Positions 1 to 5,554 of a stretch of DNA of 5,554 nucleotides are shown in pieces. Position 1 is the stretch's first letter. Every line of letters starts with the position of its first letter. A model generated the notes under the pieces. The model was given only the letters and a program-made list of their open reading frames with translations. It searched no databases and was not told the DNA's origin. The position numbers and the translations under genes are program-made. Location of the stretch: positions 1 through 5,554 of the IMG/VR virus record IMGVR_UViG_3300030418_000012; one strand, written 5' to 3'. Source of the stretch: a virus.

Positions 1-6
1 GGTGGG

Positions 7-951
7 TTAAGCCGTGGCCGTCGCGTCGATGCGGACGATGGCGGACGGGTTGGTCAGCTTGGTCAGCGAGTAGACGCGGTTGGTTACCAGCGTCAAAGCG
101 GGCGTCGGCTTGTATTCCGTGATGACTTCGCGGCGGAGCTTGCCGGACAAACCAAACGTCTTGATGGCAGAGGCGTCGAACTGCGTCGGGGAGTCTTCCT
201 TGTACAGGACATAGACTTCGTTCTCCATGATGGTCTTGGCGTCGCCGGAAGCGTCGCGGTAGGGCATGGCTGCGATGTAAATATCCCTGATAGGCCGAAT
301 CAGCGCATTGCGGAGCAGGTCTTCGTTGAAGAGGCCGACACTGTTGAATGACACCACCTGTCTGGCAATGGGGTTGGCTCGCAGGAGCTGCCAGGCGTTG
401 ATGCCAAAGACGATGGTGTTAGGCATGTGTCCAGTCGCCGCATTGATGGACAGGATGGCATTATCCAGATCCGTCAGCGGATTCTTCTGTTCGTTGGCCC
501 AGTCCCCGTAACCGGCTGCGGCAGGCAACTGGCTGGTGATGAGCTTGGCACGTTCATATTCATACGAGGTCACAAACTGTGATTCGATGAGCTTGTATTC
601 CGCCAGGGTGATAGCCTGCGCCTTTTCGCGGTTGACGCCCAGCAAGGCGTCCGGAATCGGCAAGGTTAAGCCGTACCCCTGAAGGGTGTCGGTTTCGTTC
701 CTGCCGCGCAGGACGGTCTGGCGGGGAGGTTCGCCCGGTCCCACCTGGATCGGCTGGGCCGTAAAGGCAGATTCCGTGTCCCAGACCTTGTACTGGAAAT
801 TGAGGTCGTAAACCGGGACGATCGGCGCAATGCGGCTGATAATGGAGTTCTCTTCGGTGTTTCCGGAACCCGCAGAATAAGCGGTCAGAACATCGGTGAA
901 CTGGACGGCTGAGCAAAATGGAGTAGCCCTTGTTCTTTGTCTTTCTATTGA
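7..951 (-). CDS. Major capsid protein (HK97-fold, lambda gpE-like class); 3' end firm, 5' end unresolved (coordinates give the maximal stop-to-stop open frame)
   Basis: The minus-strand frame is open from TAA 952-954 to TAA 7-9 (hand-translated). The track ORF 7..744 (245 aa) begins at GTG 742-744, the first canonical start. The in-frame translation upstream (..AVQFTDVLTAYSAGSGNTEENSIISRIAPIVPVYDLNFQYKVWDTESAFTAQPIQ|VGPGEPP..) reads as real protein and brings the size to about 300 aa, typical for a major capsid protein. It is the last gene after protease/scaffold and a small decoration-like gene, which is the usual capsid position. The xAPxVPV...Y.V.D N-terminal motif and overall character match phage major capsid proteins of the gpE-like class as I remember them. 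No search was run. Confidence 0.8.
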   Translation of the reverse strand, partial: SIERQRTRATPFCSAVQFTDVLTAYSAGSGNTEENSIISRIAPIVPVYDLNFQYKVWDTESAFTAQPIQVGPGEPPRQTVLRGRNETDTLQGYGLTLPIPDALLGVNREKAQAITLAEYKLIESQFVTSYEYERAKLITSQLPAAAGYGDWANEQKNPLTDLDNAILSINAATGHMPNTIVFGINAWQLLRANPIARQVVSFNSVGLFNEDLLRNALIRPIRDIYIAAMPYRDASGDAKTIMENEVYVLYKEDSPTQFDASAIKTFGLSGKLRREVITEYKPTPALTLVTNRVYSLTKLTNPSAIVRIDATATA

Positions 952-963
952 TTAGTGTTGATG

Positions 964-1395
964 CTACGCAGCTGCGACCTGGTAGGAGGGGACGAATCCG
1001 ATTTCCACCATGCCCTGTTCCCACTGGGCGTGGATCACGCGGGCATAGACAGTTTCTCCGCTGGCGGCGGCTTTCCATGTTCCGTTGGCCGTGATGGTGA
1101 CGGGCGTTCCGGCATTGATCGTGCCCGGCGTGTCGGAAAGAGCCGCCTTGATCAAGCCGGCGTACATGCCGACGAGGGCGGCGACGCAGGTTCCTTGGTT
1201 GGGCTGCCCTTGCAGGACTACGCCGAGCAGCTGCGTCTGCGTGGGAATGGCGGTCAGCGGCGTGCCGACAAACTCGGGAATGTCCGGGTTGGCTGTCAGC
1301 TCCACGACGGTTCCTTCCTTGCCGCATAGGTCAACACCCTCCGGGGTGTTGAAATAGACGATGGCGCTTTTCTGGGTTACGTTGAGTGATGGCAT
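964..1395 (-). CDS. Small head protein, probable head-decoration protein (DUF2190-like)
   Basis: 143-aa ORF with ATG at 1393-1395 and TAG at 964-966, sitting between the protease/scaffold and capsid genes. It is Gly/Ala/Thr/Val-rich and looks beta-rich (..GKEGTVVELTA..LLGVVLQGQPNQGTCVAALVGMYAGLIKAAL..GTPVTITANGTWKAAASGETVYARVIHA..), like the DUF2190-type proteins found immediately upstream of gpE-like capsid genes. There is no Shine-Dalgarno sequence; the leader is A-rich (ACAAAACA before the ATG). The function call is by position and resemblance only. Confidence 0.65.
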   Translation of the reverse strand: MPSLNVTQKSAIVYFNTPEGVDLCGKEGTVVELTANPDIPEFVGTPLTAIPTQTQLLGVVLQGQPNQGTCVAALVGMYAGLIKAALSDTPGTINAGTPVTITANGTWKAAASGETVYARVIHAQWEQGMVEIGFVPSYQVAAA

Positions 1396-1416
1396 TGTTT
1401 TGTATCAGGTTGGAGA

Positions 1417-2538
1417 TTATCGTTCGGAGGTTACAATGTAGCCTTCTTCAGTGGCTTTCTGACAGGCGTCGTAGCGCTTCATGCCGCCCTTCATCAATTC
1501 GTCCACGCGGTTGGTGAATCCGTCAATGGATTCCTTCTTGCGGAACGGATTGGGAGGTGTCTGGTTGGCACGCCGGTTCAAGGACGTTCTTCCAACTGGA
1601 TTGCGGCGGCTTTCGTCAACAACGTCATGCGACGGCTTTGACTTCGCGGACCGATTGAGAGCCTTGACAAAGGCGCCCAGTGCGGCGGGGCTTTCCCGGA
1701 GAGAGTTTTTCAGCTCTTCCCGGCGTTCTTCCGTGAATTCCTTGCGTTCTTCCTCGTCCAGCTCGTTTTCATACGTGCTGACGGCGTCGTCCACTTCGGC
1801 GTTCACGTGGTCTTTCTCCCGCTTTTCCAGCGAGAGCAGTTCATCGAGGCGTCCGAGGATATCCCTGCTCATGTCGTCGGTGCCGTCAAATTCGACATCC
1901 AGCTTGTCAAGCAGGGAATCAAACAGGGCCCGCTGGGCCTTGTCCATTTCCTTGGACGGATATTCTCTATCGTCGTTTTCCATATTGGTTTCTGGGTTGT
2001 TTTCCCCCTGTTCGGGGCTTTGTTGTTCGCCCCCGGTCTCCGTGGAGGCGGGGGAAGTCTGTCGGTTGACCAGAGGGCGCTTTCCCTTAATTCGGGGACG
2101 GTTGGTCAGGGCGAAGCCTGTCAGCTTGGCGGGGCGGTAAATGCCGCCCTCGAAGGTCATGCCCTCTCCATATTCAGTGGAGGATTGCGTATATTCTTTG
2201 TCGGCCAACATTTGCTGCCCGCGTGGCGTCCATTCGATGAAGCCGTACAACTCCAACGCGCCGGAAGGATCGCGGTAGGTGTCCAGCCGCTTGAGCCATC
2301 CGAGAGCGCGAGTGTCGCGTGAAAGGTCATGGCTCAAGTGGTCGCCGTCAATGAGCATGCCGGGCCCGTCAAAGGTGCGGGAGTTGAATTCGTCCACCAT
2401 GGACTTGATCGCCTGCTCGTCGATGCGGAGCACCGCAGGCCCCTCGCCGTAGTCGACCTCATGATCTCCGCTTTTCTCGACGTGGAACCAGCCGTTGGCG
2501 GGATTGGACAGGTCATTGATTTGTTTGGTACTGATCAT
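1417..2538 (-). CDS. Prohead protease / scaffolding protein (Mu gpI-like N-terminal domain plus acidic coiled-coil C-terminal half)
   Basis: 373-aa ORF with ATG 2536-2538 preceded by AAGGA at a 7-nt spacing, and TAA 1417-1419. The N-terminal 150 aa (..NGWFHVEKSGDHEV..LRIDEQAIKSMVDEFN..GMLIDGDHLSHD..ALGWLKRL..LELYGFIEWTPRGQQMLADKEY..) match the pattern I recall for the Mu-like prophage protein I protease family (W.H..P.G.., ..ID.EH..). A low-complexity linker follows, then a Glu/Asp/Arg/Lys-rich helical region typical of scaffolds. The start overlaps the portal 3' end by 26 nt. Confidence 0.85.
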   Translation of the reverse strand: MISTKQINDLSNPANGWFHVEKSGDHEVDYGEGPAVLRIDEQAIKSMVDEFNSRTFDGPGMLIDGDHLSHDLSRDTRALGWLKRLDTYRDPSGALELYGFIEWTPRGQQMLADKEYTQSSTEYGEGMTFEGGIYRPAKLTGFALTNRPRIKGKRPLVNRQTSPASTETGGEQQSPEQGENNPETNMENDDREYPSKEMDKAQRALFDSLLDKLDVEFDGTDDMSRDILGRLDELLSLEKREKDHVNAEVDDAVSTYENELDEEERKEFTEERREELKNSLRESPAALGAFVKALNRSAKSKPSHDVVDESRRNPVGRTSLNRRANQTPPNPFRKKESIDGFTNRVDELMKGGMKRYDACQKATEEGYIVTSER

Positions 2539-3778
2539 CGCTAAATCCTTTCATGAGCCCGGTATAAATGAGCTGCTGCAGCTGCTCGTAAGCGTCGGCG
2601 GGGATGTATGTGCCTTCCGGCTCCCGGTTGACGGCAGCCGCTGCGGGAGCGGTTTCCCTCGTGTCTTCGATGGACATGCCGATCTTTTCCTCGATTTCGG
2701 TTTTCTCGGGACGGACGCCTCCATCCGCAAGAGCGGCAATTTCCTCGGCCTTCTGCAGAGGCGTTTGGACGGTATCAAAGGTGATTTGGAGGCGGGCCAG
2801 CGGTTCGCCGTCTCCCAGCACCATCGGGCTAATAGAGGAGTTAAAAGCTTCCGCTACCTTGGAGCACACGGCGGAGACCACCGAGTTCCAGCTGTCCGTA
2901 TGGGCAGACCCGGCCAGCGTGCCGGAACCCGATTCGTTCAGGACAGTCAAGGTTCCTGCCATCACAAACCGCACCTGATCCTTGTCGGCCATGTTGATGC
3001 GGGATAGGAAGTAGTTTTCGTTGATGGAGGATGCCTTGAGGGGTTCCGCCGTACAGCCGGGAGGCAGGACGACGGATGCGCCGGACTTGAGTTCTTCGCA
3101 GGCGCGCTCAAGCGCGTCCATGACAGCGGCGCTTGCTTTTTGGGGAGCTGTGATAATAGCCGGGGCGGAGCCGTAGCGGTCCATATGGTTGTCCCACACC
3201 ATCTTGGCGTGGTTGCGCTCAAAGGATGCGCGGGAAGCCGAGAACAGGATGGGGTAACGGTGCTCCATTACAACGAGAGTTTCGTCTTCTACACTTTCCC
3301 CGGTATCGACGCCGATATAACAGTGGGGGTTGAATTGCCACTCATTAAGTTCCCCGGGCCGCACCCAGTAACGCTGGGGAATGAATTCAAACCTCCGGCC
3401 CCAGGCATCCTCAATATATTGGAGATGGGCATAGCCATAGAACAGAGCAGAGGCCAGATGTCCGAAGGCCTGTTGAAGACCGTTGACGGAGTTGTAGAAT
3501 TCTTCCAGGTCCTTTTTCTGCTGCTGGGCTTCCCGGCTGTCGTTGGCTGCATCAATCTTCCAGCCTTGCATAGAGACGCTTTCAATTAACCGGGAGTAGA
3601 GCATGCCCAGAAGTCCGTCCGAGTAGATAACCTCGTCCCAGATGAGCATCTGGCGTGCAAAAGCTCCACGCCGTGCTTCATTTCTTGCGTCAACGAGTGT
3701 TTGCAAGCCGGCACCCTGAAGAGGGTCCCAGTATTCAAACCATTGAGGGCGGCCAGGAGTGCGGCTCCGGTCCGTCAA
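2513..3778 (-). CDS. Portal protein (Mu gp29 / DUF935 family)
   Basis: 421-aa ORF directly downstream of terL in transcription order, with stop TGA 2513-2515. The segment ..VRFVMAGTLTVLNESGSGTLAGSAHTDSWNSVV.. resembles the conserved G.LT....G.GS.A....H core of DUF935 portals. The N-terminal ..GLQTLVDARNEARRG...WDEV...D..L..L...R...V.. resembles the conserved N-terminal block. The first canonical start is TTG 3776-3778, with no SD. The frame stays open upstream to 3947, so the start is uncertain (see findings). Confidence 0.9.
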   Translation of the reverse strand: MTDRSRTPGRPQWFEYWDPLQGAGLQTLVDARNEARRGAFARQMLIWDEVIYSDGLLGMLYSRLIESVSMQGWKIDAANDSREAQQQKKDLEEFYNSVNGLQQAFGHLASALFYGYAHLQYIEDAWGRRFEFIPQRYWVRPGELNEWQFNPHCYIGVDTGESVEDETLVVMEHRYPILFSASRASFERNHAKMVWDNHMDRYGSAPAIITAPQKASAAVMDALERACEELKSGASVVLPPGCTAEPLKASSINENYFLSRINMADKDQVRFVMAGTLTVLNESGSGTLAGSAHTDSWNSVVSAVCSKVAEAFNSSISPMVLGDGEPLARLQITFDTVQTPLQKAEEIAALADGGVRPEKTEIEEKIGMSIEDTRETAPAAAAVNREPEGTYIPADAYEQLQQLIYTGLMKGFSDDQYQTNQ

Positions 3779-3900
3779 GGCTTGCCGGGCGAGGTCTGTT
3801 TCCAGTTCCTTGATTCTGGTCTCCTGTTGGGCGACCAGCTTCGGGGCGTTGAGGATATTTCGGACGGCGTTAAACCTGCGGCGGGAGGAAAGGAAAAGGT

Positions 3901-3974
3901 TGGTTGCAGGGGGAGGAGTTGGACCTCCGACATGAGGACAGGAACCTCATATGATACCGTTTCACCACCCTGCG
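3901..3974 (-). tRNA. tRNA-like gene with a complete cloverleaf, anticodon CCU (nominally tRNA-Arg), atypical initiator-like acceptor stem, CCA encoded
   Basis: Minus strand 3974->3901 reads CGCAGGG TG GTGA AACGGTA TCAT A TGAGG TTCCTGT CCTCA TGTC GGAGG TCCAACT CCTCC CCCTGCA A CCA. All four stems fall in the canonical order and spacing. The invariants U8, A14, G18G19, A21, U33, G53-C61, C56 and A58 are present, as are the discriminator and CCA. The deviations are a C1xA72 mismatch, C55, G37 next to U36, a 7-nt D loop and a 4-nt variable loop. It was folded by hand only; no tRNAscan-SE or Infernal run. Confidence 0.6.
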
Positions 3975-4020
3975 GTTGAATATACATCAACACATATAGA
4001 TATGTTGATATATTGTCAAC
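3975..4020. promoter_or_regulatory. AT-rich island with two tandem 17-bp GTTGA-N7-TCAAC palindromes and promoter-like hexamers, immediately 5' of the tRNA-like gene
   Basis: Plus strand: GTTGA ATATACA TCAAC (3975-3991) and GTTGA TATATTG TCAAC (4004-4020), with centres 29 bp apart. The inner arms ATCAAC (3986-3991) and GTTGAT (4004-4009) form a third inverted repeat. On the minus strand, TTGACA (4019-4014) is followed 15-17 nt later by TATATG/TATGTG, and TATATT (3984-3979) ends 4 nt before tRNA position 1. This is the only AT-rich stretch in the window, and it starts 1 nt after the terL stop codon. Its function is not established. Confidence 0.4.
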
Positions 4021-4021
4021 C

Positions 4022-5368
4022 CTAATATCTGCCGATAGCGCGTTTTTGTGCCGGATGTCTGGCATACCACGCTCCAAGCTCCCGGACAAGCCCGCTGTGC
4101 CGGCGCGCGTGCCAGGCCATGACGAGCGCATCAGCACGGTCGGGAGAGCGGACGCCGCGCTTCGCCATGTCCTCCTTACTCTCGATTTTGACGCGGCCAA
4201 TTGCGTCCGTCTGGAAGCGCGGCGCGACAAGCTGCTCAATGGTGTCCTCATCAATGTCGAGGATGAGCTCTTTTTCCTCGATCGCACGTGCCAATGCTCT
4301 CCATGCCTGGGCGCGGAGGTTGACAAAGGCCTGTGTATCGTCGGCGGGAAATCCGCCCCGGTAGGAGTGCACCGGGAAGCCCTCGGCGCGGAAGTCGTCA
4401 ATGAGGGGGAGTCCAAGGCCGTCTCCATCCGCGAAAATGCGGTCGGCTGGAATGCCGAGTTCGGCGGCCTTGCGGCGGAACCGTCCGCGCGCTCCGACGG
4501 TGTCCGGGTCTGCCCAGTGATCAGCAATGAAGAATCGGTTGCCGTGCCCGGCAGCAAAGACGTTTTCGTCTCCGCCGGCGGCGAAGTCAAAGCCGCCGCA
4601 GGTCTCCCCGGTGTCCAAAAAGGGAGGCGGGTTATTGAACAGCTCCATAAGGGAGCGGCGGGAAATGACGGACTGTCCGTCTAGGTCCGTGAATTCTCCG
4701 AGGATGGCGGAGCGGTAGAAAGAGGATTGCTCTCCGTATTCTTTTTTGATGCGGGCGGCCTTGCCCGGGTCGTTGATCTCAATATGAGGACAGTCCTCGT
4801 ATTTGACCCGGATTTTGTAGTAGAGGGAGGAATTTTTGTGGAAGCAGTCGTAGAAGGTGCCGGAGTCAGCTCCAGGTGACGATGTGATGAACGCATGAAA
4901 GAGCGTGCAGCGGGAAACCGCGGTAAAGATGGGGTCCGGGATGGTCTTGGCTTCGTCGAGGACGTAAAAGACCGGGTCCACGTCGGGCGATATTTTCGGG
5001 TGCCATCCTTCCGCGCGTCCGGCGTTGTCGGTGGAGAATCCCACGGCAAAGCCGCCTTCGGGCGTGCGGATTTCCGTCTTATTGAAGGTCCAGCCTGCAA
5101 AGAAGGGGTTGTCCATGTAGCGGCGCAGCGCGGGAAAGAGCTGCTTTTCCACTTGCATCCAGGACGAGGACGTGACAGGAACCTGTCCCCGCGGAAAACA
5201 GGTGAGAAAGTACAGGATGGCCGGCGCAATGCAGTTGCTTGTCTTGCCCGACCCGTTAGGGGCTACCAAAGCCACGCTTTTTCCTCCCAGGGCAATCTTG
5301 CCGAGGGATAGCGCCTTGATGGCCTCTACCTGCCAGGGATAGGGATCCAGGCGGAGGATGTGACGCAA
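4022..5368 (-). CDS. terL: Terminase large subunit (ATPase plus RNase H-like nuclease)
   Basis: 448-aa ORF. It has Walker A VAPNGSGKTS and Walker B VFYVLDEA. The C-terminal nuclease acidic motifs are GGFDFAAGGDENVF, IFADGDGLGLPLIDDF and RSPDRADALVMAW. It lies immediately upstream of the portal. The start in the track is TTG 5366-5368, with no ATG until aa 71. Stop is TAG 4022-4024. Confidence 0.93.
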   Translation of the reverse strand: MRHILRLDPYPWQVEAIKALSLGKIALGGKSVALVAPNGSGKTSNCIAPAILYFLTCFPRGQVPVTSSSWMQVEKQLFPALRRYMDNPFFAGWTFNKTEIRTPEGGFAVGFSTDNAGRAEGWHPKISPDVDPVFYVLDEAKTIPDPIFTAVSRCTLFHAFITSSPGADSGTFYDCFHKNSSLYYKIRVKYEDCPHIEINDPGKAARIKKEYGEQSSFYRSAILGEFTDLDGQSVISRRSLMELFNNPPPFLDTGETCGGFDFAAGGDENVFAAGHGNRFFIADHWADPDTVGARGRFRRKAAELGIPADRIFADGDGLGLPLIDDFRAEGFPVHSYRGGFPADDTQAFVNLRAQAWRALARAIEEKELILDIDEDTIEQLVAPRFQTDAIGRVKIESKEDMAKRGVRSPDRADALVMAWHARRHSGLVRELGAWYARHPAQKRAIGRY

Positions 5369-5401
5369 GAAGAAGCTGACGGGAAGGTAGGGCCTGCGGT
5401 A

Positions 5402-5554
5402 CTACGGGTTGAGCTTGCCGGTAATGGTTTCGAGCGCGGTCTTCTCGTCTTCCTGGAGCTGGGCCAGCTGCTCGGGGTCCAGGGTGATTTTGCGTTCTAA
5501 TGGCGAGCCGGGAACGCCCGCTACATCCTGCCGGACTCGGTCGCCGAATTTCTC
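5402..5554 (-). CDS. 3' end of an upstream gene running off the window (function unknown; position suggests a terminase small subunit or other packaging protein)
   Basis: The hand-translated minus-strand frame is open from the window edge to TAG 5402-5404: EKFGDRVRQDVAGVPGSPLERKITLDPEQLAQLQEDEKTALETITGKLNP*. It shares strand and frame with terL and has coding-like composition. It is absent from the track because no start lies inside the window. The functional guess rests on gene order only. Confidence 0.45.
   Translation of the reverse strand, partial: EKFGDRVRQDVAGVPGSPLERKITLDPEQLAQLQEDEKTALETITGKLNP

Follow-up and report, generated by a model that had tools for sequence, protein, structure and literature searches.

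Why should a phage keep a tRNA gene with the anticodon CCU between the genes for its large terminase (terL) and its portal protein? The locus lies in a window of 5,554 nt, meaning the whole stretch of DNA analyzed, which is positions 1 to 5,554 of IMG/VR virus record IMGVR_UViG_3300030418_000012. The source is an Akkermansia prophage, from a temperate phage whose host lives in the human gut. The window shares 81.5% identity with Akkermansia phage DTMo-2021a (CP084202.1), and portal genes 82-96% identical to its own occur in 45 IMG/VR contigs and one metagenome-assembled genome (MAG) of Akkermansia muciniphila. The tRNA gene, terL and the genes for the portal, a protease/scaffold, a 143-residue protein and the capsid are all on the minus strand. 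By the textbook rule, translation in cells and phages starts via an initiator tRNA with a CAU anticodon, and starts at codons other than AUG are near-cognate readings by that same tRNA. Comparison of the phage with its relatives suggests another arrangement: probably the gene encodes an initiator tRNA(CCU) of the phage's own, which would start the translation of late genes at AGG.

The tRNA gene at the terL-portal junction

The single tRNA that ARAGORN finds in the window is typed as tRNA-Arg(cct); it occupies 3901..3974 of the minus strand and is 74 nt long with an encoded CCA. Model RF00005 matches the same segment over its full length (1-71 at 3904..3974) with 49.9 bits, above its gathering score of 29 (E = 9.4e-9), and the sole non-standard pair in that alignment is 1:72. 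No other Rfam model has a match near threshold in the window, all having E > 2. The minimum-energy fold of the single sequence is again the cloverleaf, at -28.2 kcal/mol (z = -2.38). Thus the minus-strand cloverleaf running from 3974 to 3901, proposed earlier in a sequence-only reading of the window, is recovered by both programs, and its parts are all present: C1xA72, U8, the D stem GUGA/UCAU with the D loop AACGGUA, the anticodon loop UUCCUGU, a 4-nt variable region, the T loop UCCAACU with C55, A73 and the CCA. The anticodon CCT (C34 C35 U36), at 3940..3942 on the minus strand, is complementary to AGG.

Among related loci that cover the junction, 46/46 carry a tRNA(cct) in the same place, and these represent 16 distinct tRNA sequences. 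It is also found at the terL-portal junction of L203 and L204, which together with L039 and L150 are the lineages used for deeper comparisons. The anticodon is the same in 16/16 variants and in L204, while loop positions 37 and 38 differ among variants. Eight of 21 pairs are altered on both sides across the 16 variants, and the D, anticodon and T helices stay 100% paired, values attained by 0/500 shuffles. Compensation is seen in the anticodon stem (UGAGG/CCUCA versus CGGGG/CCCCG), in the T stem (GGAGG/CCUCC versus GAAGG/CCUUC, GAAAG/CUUUC and GGGGG/CCCCC) and in the acceptor stem (A4-U69/G4-C69 and G7-C66/A7-U66). The tRNA is confirmed as genuine, phage-encoded and under structural selection. 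Its fold had been judged too ordered for chance, and the conservation at one position with compensatory stem changes bears this out. The earlier reading had also allowed for a functional atypical tRNA, a decaying one or a tRNA-like element; a selectively maintained tRNA is what stands, neither a copy in decay nor something that only resembles a tRNA. That the gene marks an integration site or the end of the prophage was considered as well and rejected, as it is inside the late operon in every relative.

Some positions vary outside the helices. At position 37 most copies have G, variant v4 (L006, L012, L022 and L041) has A and L204 has U. C55 (window position 3923) is found in most copies, with the canonical U55 in L014, L024, L039 and L204, and G19 (window position 3958) is replaced by U, A or C in three singleton variants.

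What kind of tRNA is this? Bacterial initiators are marked by three G-C pairs at 29:41, 30:40 and 31:39, with natural au/GC/GC exceptions, and by G2:C71, C3:G70 and A73, of which G2:C71 and C3:G70 are formyltransferase determinants (PMC5389676). In the phage tRNA, C1 (3974) and A72 (3905) are unpaired in 16/16 variants, G2-C71 is present in 15/16 (one has G·U), C3-G70 is present in 16/16, and A73 is invariant. All three G-C pairs of the anticodon stem occur in 12/16. The L204 tRNA has acquired A6-U67 and U7-A66 pairs and yet retains C1·A72, along with the three G-C pairs and CCU. The acceptor, CGCAGGG/CCCUGCA-A-CCA, differs by one compensated pair from that of Escherichia coli tRNA-fMet, CGCGGGG/CCCCGCA-A-CCA, for which the reference sequence was verified against 5,426 genomes.

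The anticodon is CCU in every copy, not the CAU of tRNA-fMet. Arginine elongators are characterized by a paired 1:72, A20 and A37, and the arginyl-tRNA synthetase of E. coli uses A20; here 1:72 is unpaired, the D loop AACGGUA carries U20, and G37 stands in place of A37. The tRNA thus looks like an initiator-type molecule that is neither tRNA-fMet nor an ordinary tRNA-Arg. The 1-72 mismatch, G37 and C55 had been rightly picked out as non-canonical in the sequence-only reading, but were taken there as blemishes on an arginine elongator, a view at odds with the initiator-type evidence.

Viral contigs were scanned with the 5' half of the tRNA, CGCNGGNTNGTGAAACGNTATCA. Matches came from the Akkermansia phage group and from six unrelated contigs (L163, L167, L175, L187, L192 and L202), where the matching gene is in each case a compact 74-nt tRNA-Met(CAT). 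These compact tRNA-Met(CAU) genes share C1·A72, G2-C71, C3-G70 and an encoded CCA with the CCU tRNA, and their anticodon loop, CUCAUAA, is that of E. coli tRNA-fMet. All three kinds of tRNA have C1·A72, G2-C71, C3-G70 and A73-CCA in common, along with G-C pairs low in the anticodon stem, though not always the full three. Over its first 25 nt the CCU tRNA matches the L167 tRNA-Met(CAU) at 24/25 positions, and two of the six phages carry a second, ordinary tRNA-Met. In a sample of 140 phage tRNAs sharing the D arm, the 1:72 mismatch is limited to those with CAT or CCT anticodons, and the Gln, Asn, Lys and Thr tRNAs always pair 1:72. The CCU tRNA therefore has the initiator-type tRNA-Met(CAU) genes of phages as its closest sequence relatives, the anticodon having apparently changed from CAU to CCU. 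It differs from them and from tRNA-fMet in its loop, UUCCUGU with G37 instead of CUCAUAA with A37, and in the C55 of most copies. With such a loop, AUG, GUG and UUG should be unreadable by this tRNA, which should not be a substrate for methionyl-tRNA synthetase.

The six tRNA-Met(CAU) phages are unrelated to the Akkermansia group; some are large, and L192 has 17 tRNAs. Their compact genes have only two G-C pairs, plus A31-U39, in the anticodon stem, and in a few of them 1:72 is A·A or C·C. ARAGORN trims C1 and ACCA off four of them.

AGG at the start position of late genes

The codon that this anticodon would read stands where translation of the neighboring genes should begin. At the portal gene, AGG occupies the start-codon position, 3875..3877 on the minus strand, in 44/44 relatives. 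It is preceded by a non-coding spacer of 23 nt (3878..3900) that is U/C-rich, has no Shine-Dalgarno motif, is variable at 21/23 columns (91%) and differs among relatives by indels of 1, 3, 7 and 8 nt. Past this spacer, from AGG 3877, the pattern becomes that of a coding sequence, with variable columns numbering 14/6/28 at codon positions 1/2/3 and conservative N-terminal replacements (R/K, V/L/I, D/E). Upstream, the portal frame stays open as far as a stop within the tRNA gene, and it holds no ATG, GTG or TTG before TTG 3778, which is changed to CTG (synonymous, Leu) in 7/30 unique relatives. The earlier view of a 243-bp gap ending at a TTG 3778 start does not hold, as coding begins at AGG 3877, and only 23 nt separate the CCA of the tRNA from the portal gene. 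The Mu-type portal thus extends over 2513..3877, 454 codons, instead of the 2513..3778 called earlier (PF06074 at 1.2e-31). The near-cognate codons ATC 3856, CTG 3838 and ATC 3814, the last of which follows AGGAG at 3825-3821, were rejected as portal starts: conservation and the N-termini of homologues reach to the AGG.

At the capsid gene the AGG is at 928..930 on the minus strand, 31 nt past the stop of the previous gene, and is the same in 39/39 relatives. The frame, open from 951, offers no canonical start before GTG 744, which is codon 69; by the PHROG profiles of the capsid, about 70 N-terminal residues would be missing from the earlier call (7..744). Between 930 and 745 the periodicity is 15/15/53, with AGG 930 at the edge of conservation. 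The start position is ATG in L039, the most divergent relative, and the homologues P0001 (84% identity), P0005 (67%) and P0047 (55%) have Met exactly at the AGG position. The major capsid protein corrected in this way spans 7..930, or 307 codons, with the predicted N-terminus X-ATPFCSAVQFTDVLTAYSAGSGNTEENSIISR, where X is the residue specified by the first codon.

The AGG of terL, at 5393..5395 on the minus strand, is the same in 43/43 relatives, and AGG 5395 lies 6 nt past the stop of an upstream gene resembling the small terminase gene terS (TAG 5404-5402). Most relatives have CTC or CTT in place of TTG 5368, the start in the earlier call of 4022..5368. ATG stands at the AGG position or beside it in L039, L150 and L204, ahead of the conserved peptide LPVSFF; in L039 the ATG is one codon away. 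The corrected gene covers 4022..5395 (phrog_2 at 3.1e-25). On these alignments, AGG is the exact 5' edge of 3-periodic conservation in portal, capsid and terL alike, and no canonical start is conserved. TTG 3778, TTG 5368 and GTG 744 were rejected as the true starts, since they are replaced by CTG, CTC or CTT or fall within conserved coding sequence. Two genes of the window provide the contrast, the protease/scaffold (1417..2538) and the 143-residue head gene (964..1395), both on the minus strand with ordinary ATG starts.

The pattern extends beyond the window. In CP084202.1 four more late genes begin with AGG and lack a canonical start that could be used: the small terminase gene, a tail-region gene of 723 residues and two others from the tail region, of which one is tail-fibre-like. 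These four AGGs are invariant in relatives, with 3-periodic variation after them and variable, indel-rich sequence before them, and the small-terminase PHROG profile is aligned from residue 7 of the AGG-started protein. Early-region genes of the same phage use ATG. The recoded first codons are therefore concentrated in late and structural genes, namely terS, terL, portal, capsid and three tail-region genes. At the first-codon positions of all loci only AGG, ATG or TTG is found, and never a synonymous arginine codon.

Other AGG codons behave differently. Internal AGG accounts for 5/1,729 codons in the window (2.9 per 1,000; 5% of arginine codons), set against 3/5 of first codons. All five internal sites drift in relatives, to AGA, CGG, CGC, CGA, AAG or CAG, and AGG is the minority state among relatives at 4/5 of them.

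The deeper lineages tie the start codons to the tRNA. L203 (portal 85% identical) has the tRNA, ATG at the portal and AGG at the other five genes, and L204 (portal 64% identical) has the tRNA, AGG at the portal and ATG at terL. In L150, which is syntenic with a portal 61% identical, no tRNA(CCU) was found in 15.6 kb of the 24.6-kb contig, from terL to the tail genes, and the AGG positions hold canonical starts in all five comparable genes: ATG at terL, TTG at the portal, ATG at the capsid and ATG at two tail genes. Every relative with AGG starts also has the tRNA. Sequence comparison thus establishes AGG at the start-codon position of seven genes, and the co-occurrence of these starts with the tRNA.

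Two side observations concern these lineages. A terS-like gene of L070 (IMGVR_UViG_3300029541_000020), 45% identical over the N-terminus, starts ATG-AAG-AAA-AAA, and the matching start in the Akkermansia phages is AGG-AAA-AAG-AAA. L150 is a Logan contig whose positions 1-30 are a Nextera transposase adaptor, AGATGTGTATAAGAGACAG, so that the contig has an artificial end, made in assembly, and does not reach the terS region.

Initiation at AGG and competing explanations

That the tRNA itself initiates at AGG is what we infer from these associations. The tRNA would be transcribed from a promoter-like element at the head of a portal-to-capsid transcript and then processed. Its unpaired 1:72, along with its pairs 2:71 and 3:70, would allow formylation and exclusion from elongation, as in bacteria, and G-C pairing at the foot of the anticodon stem would admit it to the ribosomal P site during initiation, where CCU could pair perfectly with AGG. 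The amino acid carried is most likely arginine, for which C35 and U36 are identity elements, and it may be formylated. Late genes would then be translated efficiently only with the phage tRNA, giving a private start codon tied to the late programme. There is also a good chance that the whole forms a natural orthogonal initiation system, in which a second initiator tRNA serves packaging, head and tail genes whose starts were converted to AGG, so that proteins with non-Met N-termini would be made only when the tRNA is available.

Several points weigh against initiation by this tRNA. The support is wholly comparative, and most relatives are close (82-96% identity), so that counts of sequences are not counts of independent events; L150, moreover, is covered in part. 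In the tRNA, the window copy has A29-U41/G30-C40/G31-C39 (au/GC/GC) and so is without the first G-C pair, and two of the 16 variants have U31·G39. The 11:24 pair is U:A, the elongator type, in all variants, where bacterial initiators have A11:U24; U11:A24 is likewise present in the related tRNA-Met(CAU) genes of phages. C55 and the variable position 19 leave the elbow between D loop and T loop seemingly less constrained than usual. With U20 instead of A20, charging with arginine is uncertain, and formyltransferase disfavours basic residues. No Shine-Dalgarno motif is found at any of the seven AGG-start genes, which have leaders rich in U, C and A; GGAG motifs do occur at several of the phage's ATG-start genes. 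Site choice by the ribosome is thus a difficulty for the proposal. Finally, terS and terL are upstream of the tRNA gene yet would depend on its product.

A fourth base pair next to the anticodon, between G37 and C at -1 (CAGG:CCUG), was considered by analogy with the A37:U-1 pairing of E. coli (PMC10018350) and is not specifically supported. C at -1 is no less frequent before ATG-start genes (8/11), and the A37 variant v4 keeps C at -1, which does not fit. U37 with A at -1 of the portal AGG in L204 would fit and is anecdotal.

The tRNA is unlikely to be a plain tRNA-Arg(CCU) for elongation, there to boost the reading of a codon rare in the host, with the AGG starts unrelated to it and read weakly, as near-cognates, by host tRNA-fMet. 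ARAGORN does type it as Arg by its anticodon, which is that of tRNA-Arg(CCU) such as E. coli argW; PMC10264068 describes phage tRNAs for rare codons as common, and AGG is rare in these genes and may be poorly decoded by the host. Yet the 1:72 mismatch is invariant here and every elongator of this D-arm family pairs those positions; neither A20 nor A37 is there, and the phage genes have no AGG excess that would call for such a tRNA. Supplementation as such was rejected, since internal AGG is rare and drifts to other codons. Nor would an elongator account for the co-occurrence of tRNA and AGG starts, with canonical starts in L150, where no tRNA was found; and production of a capsid by near-cognate initiation at AGG would probably be very inefficient.

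It is quite improbable that the tRNA has some other role, as a decoy or replacement countering host tRNA nucleases or as a signal for processing of the terL/portal message, and is linked to AGG only indirectly. Neither function needs an invariant CCU complementary to the first codon of seven genes, and L150 keeps the promoter-like junction with no tRNA found there. In favour of such a role are the position of the tRNA at an operon junction, directly after a promoter-like site, and the statement in PMC10264068 that altered anticodon loops of phage tRNAs can evade host anticodon nucleases.

Least credible, indeed scarcely so, is that the AGGs are not starts and the proteins begin at downstream GTG, TTG or ATG codons, or at near-cognate ATC or CTG: TTG 5368, TTG 3778 and GTG 744 do exist, and public records give shorter proteins (capsid 231-278 residues, portal 352-421), but those codons are unconserved (TTG to CTG, CTC or CTT), conservative 3-periodic substitution begins at AGG, homologues with Met or TTG begin at the AGG position with N-terminal peptides in common, the terS and capsid profiles need the upstream residues, and the portal calls that run into the tRNA gene reflect the absence of a legal start.

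The proposed initiation by the phage tRNA has a parallel in engineered systems. Amber initiators and i-tRNA(CCU) follow the same design, an initiator body with a swapped anticodon and a matching start (bioRxiv 10.64898/2026.04.16.719103; PMC11744186), and in E. coli the engineered i-tRNA(CCU)/AGG pair gave stronger initiation than any other of the 12 orthogonal pairs, in each strain tested (bioRxiv 10.64898/2026.04.16.719103). The engineered pairs are laboratory constructs on an E. coli tRNA-fMet scaffold with Shine-Dalgarno-led reporters, whereas the phage pair is natural, is found in many metagenomes and concerns at least seven genes that have no Shine-Dalgarno motif. Stop-codon recoding in crAss-like and Lak phages likewise involves a phage tRNA with an unusual anticodon and late or structural genes, and has been proposed to tie late translation to the phage programme (bioRxiv 10.1101/2021.08.26.457843; PMC9523058). 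There a stop codon is reassigned in elongation, whereas in the Akkermansia phage a start codon would be reassigned at the initiation step; stop codons are used normally in this phage.

In the literature searched, coverage of which is incomplete, no natural initiator tRNA with an anticodon other than CAU, no natural AGG start codons and no studies of translation in these Akkermansia phages were found. If an initiator tRNA(CCU) does serve AGG starts here, it would count as the first reassignment of a start codon in nature and would lock late genes at the level of translation, and a dedicated non-CAU initiator with matching starts would be a new deviation of the genetic code, at the start codon rather than the stop. 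For the phage, such a lock might silence virion genes in the lysogen or shield late translation against interference by the host. For synthetic biology, the natural pair would coincide with the best engineered orthogonal pair and offer a second scaffold, independent of Shine-Dalgarno motifs. Cultures are available of both Akkermansia phage DTMo-2021a and its host strain, making the proposal directly testable.

A practical consequence is that gene finders cannot call genes that start with AGG, and the capsid, portal and terminase of a common A. muciniphila prophage are mis-annotated. In protein clusters P0002-P0046 and P0049-P0088, from Akkermansia genomes and metagenomes, public calls give the capsid 231-278 residues instead of 307, and the portal 352-421 residues, or 474-493 when the call runs into the tRNA gene, as expected of gene callers that had no legal start to choose.

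The promoter-like element and other features of the locus

Upstream of the tRNA gene, at 3991..4019 on the minus strand, is a promoter-like element consisting of TTGACA (4019-4014), a 17-nt spacer and TATGTG (3996-3991). TTGACA is invariant in relatives, and the element is a putative promoter. The terL-portal gap of L150 has a similar TTGACA-N17-TATGTT; with a promoter-like junction present there and no tRNA, it appears that the tRNA was inserted between promoter and portal gene. An AT-rich inverted repeat (3974..4021), with 22-nt arms at 3974-3995 and 4000-4021 that are 82% complementary, overlaps the promoter-like element. It lies directly past the terL stop, some 10-20 nt before the 5' end of the tRNA, and may be an operator for a late regulator.

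Within the portal N-terminal coding sequence, 3816-3838 on the minus strand can form a 9-bp hairpin, CUGGUCGCC-CAACA-GGAGACCAG, that contains AGGAG. L039 has one compensatory change in it (C to U with G to A), and other relatives break a pair synonymously.

Long open reading frames at 560-1327, 3775-4590 and 4013-4684, among others, overlap the head genes in other frames or on the plus strand and seem to be a side effect of the 58% G+C content rather than genes. One source titles the portal homologue P0056 'AKMU_P330 (plasmid) [Akkermansia muciniphila]'. CP084202.1 is a separate linear record of 31.9 kb, and in L047 the phage sits inside a 283-kb MAG contig; the phage may be both integrated and extrachromosomal.

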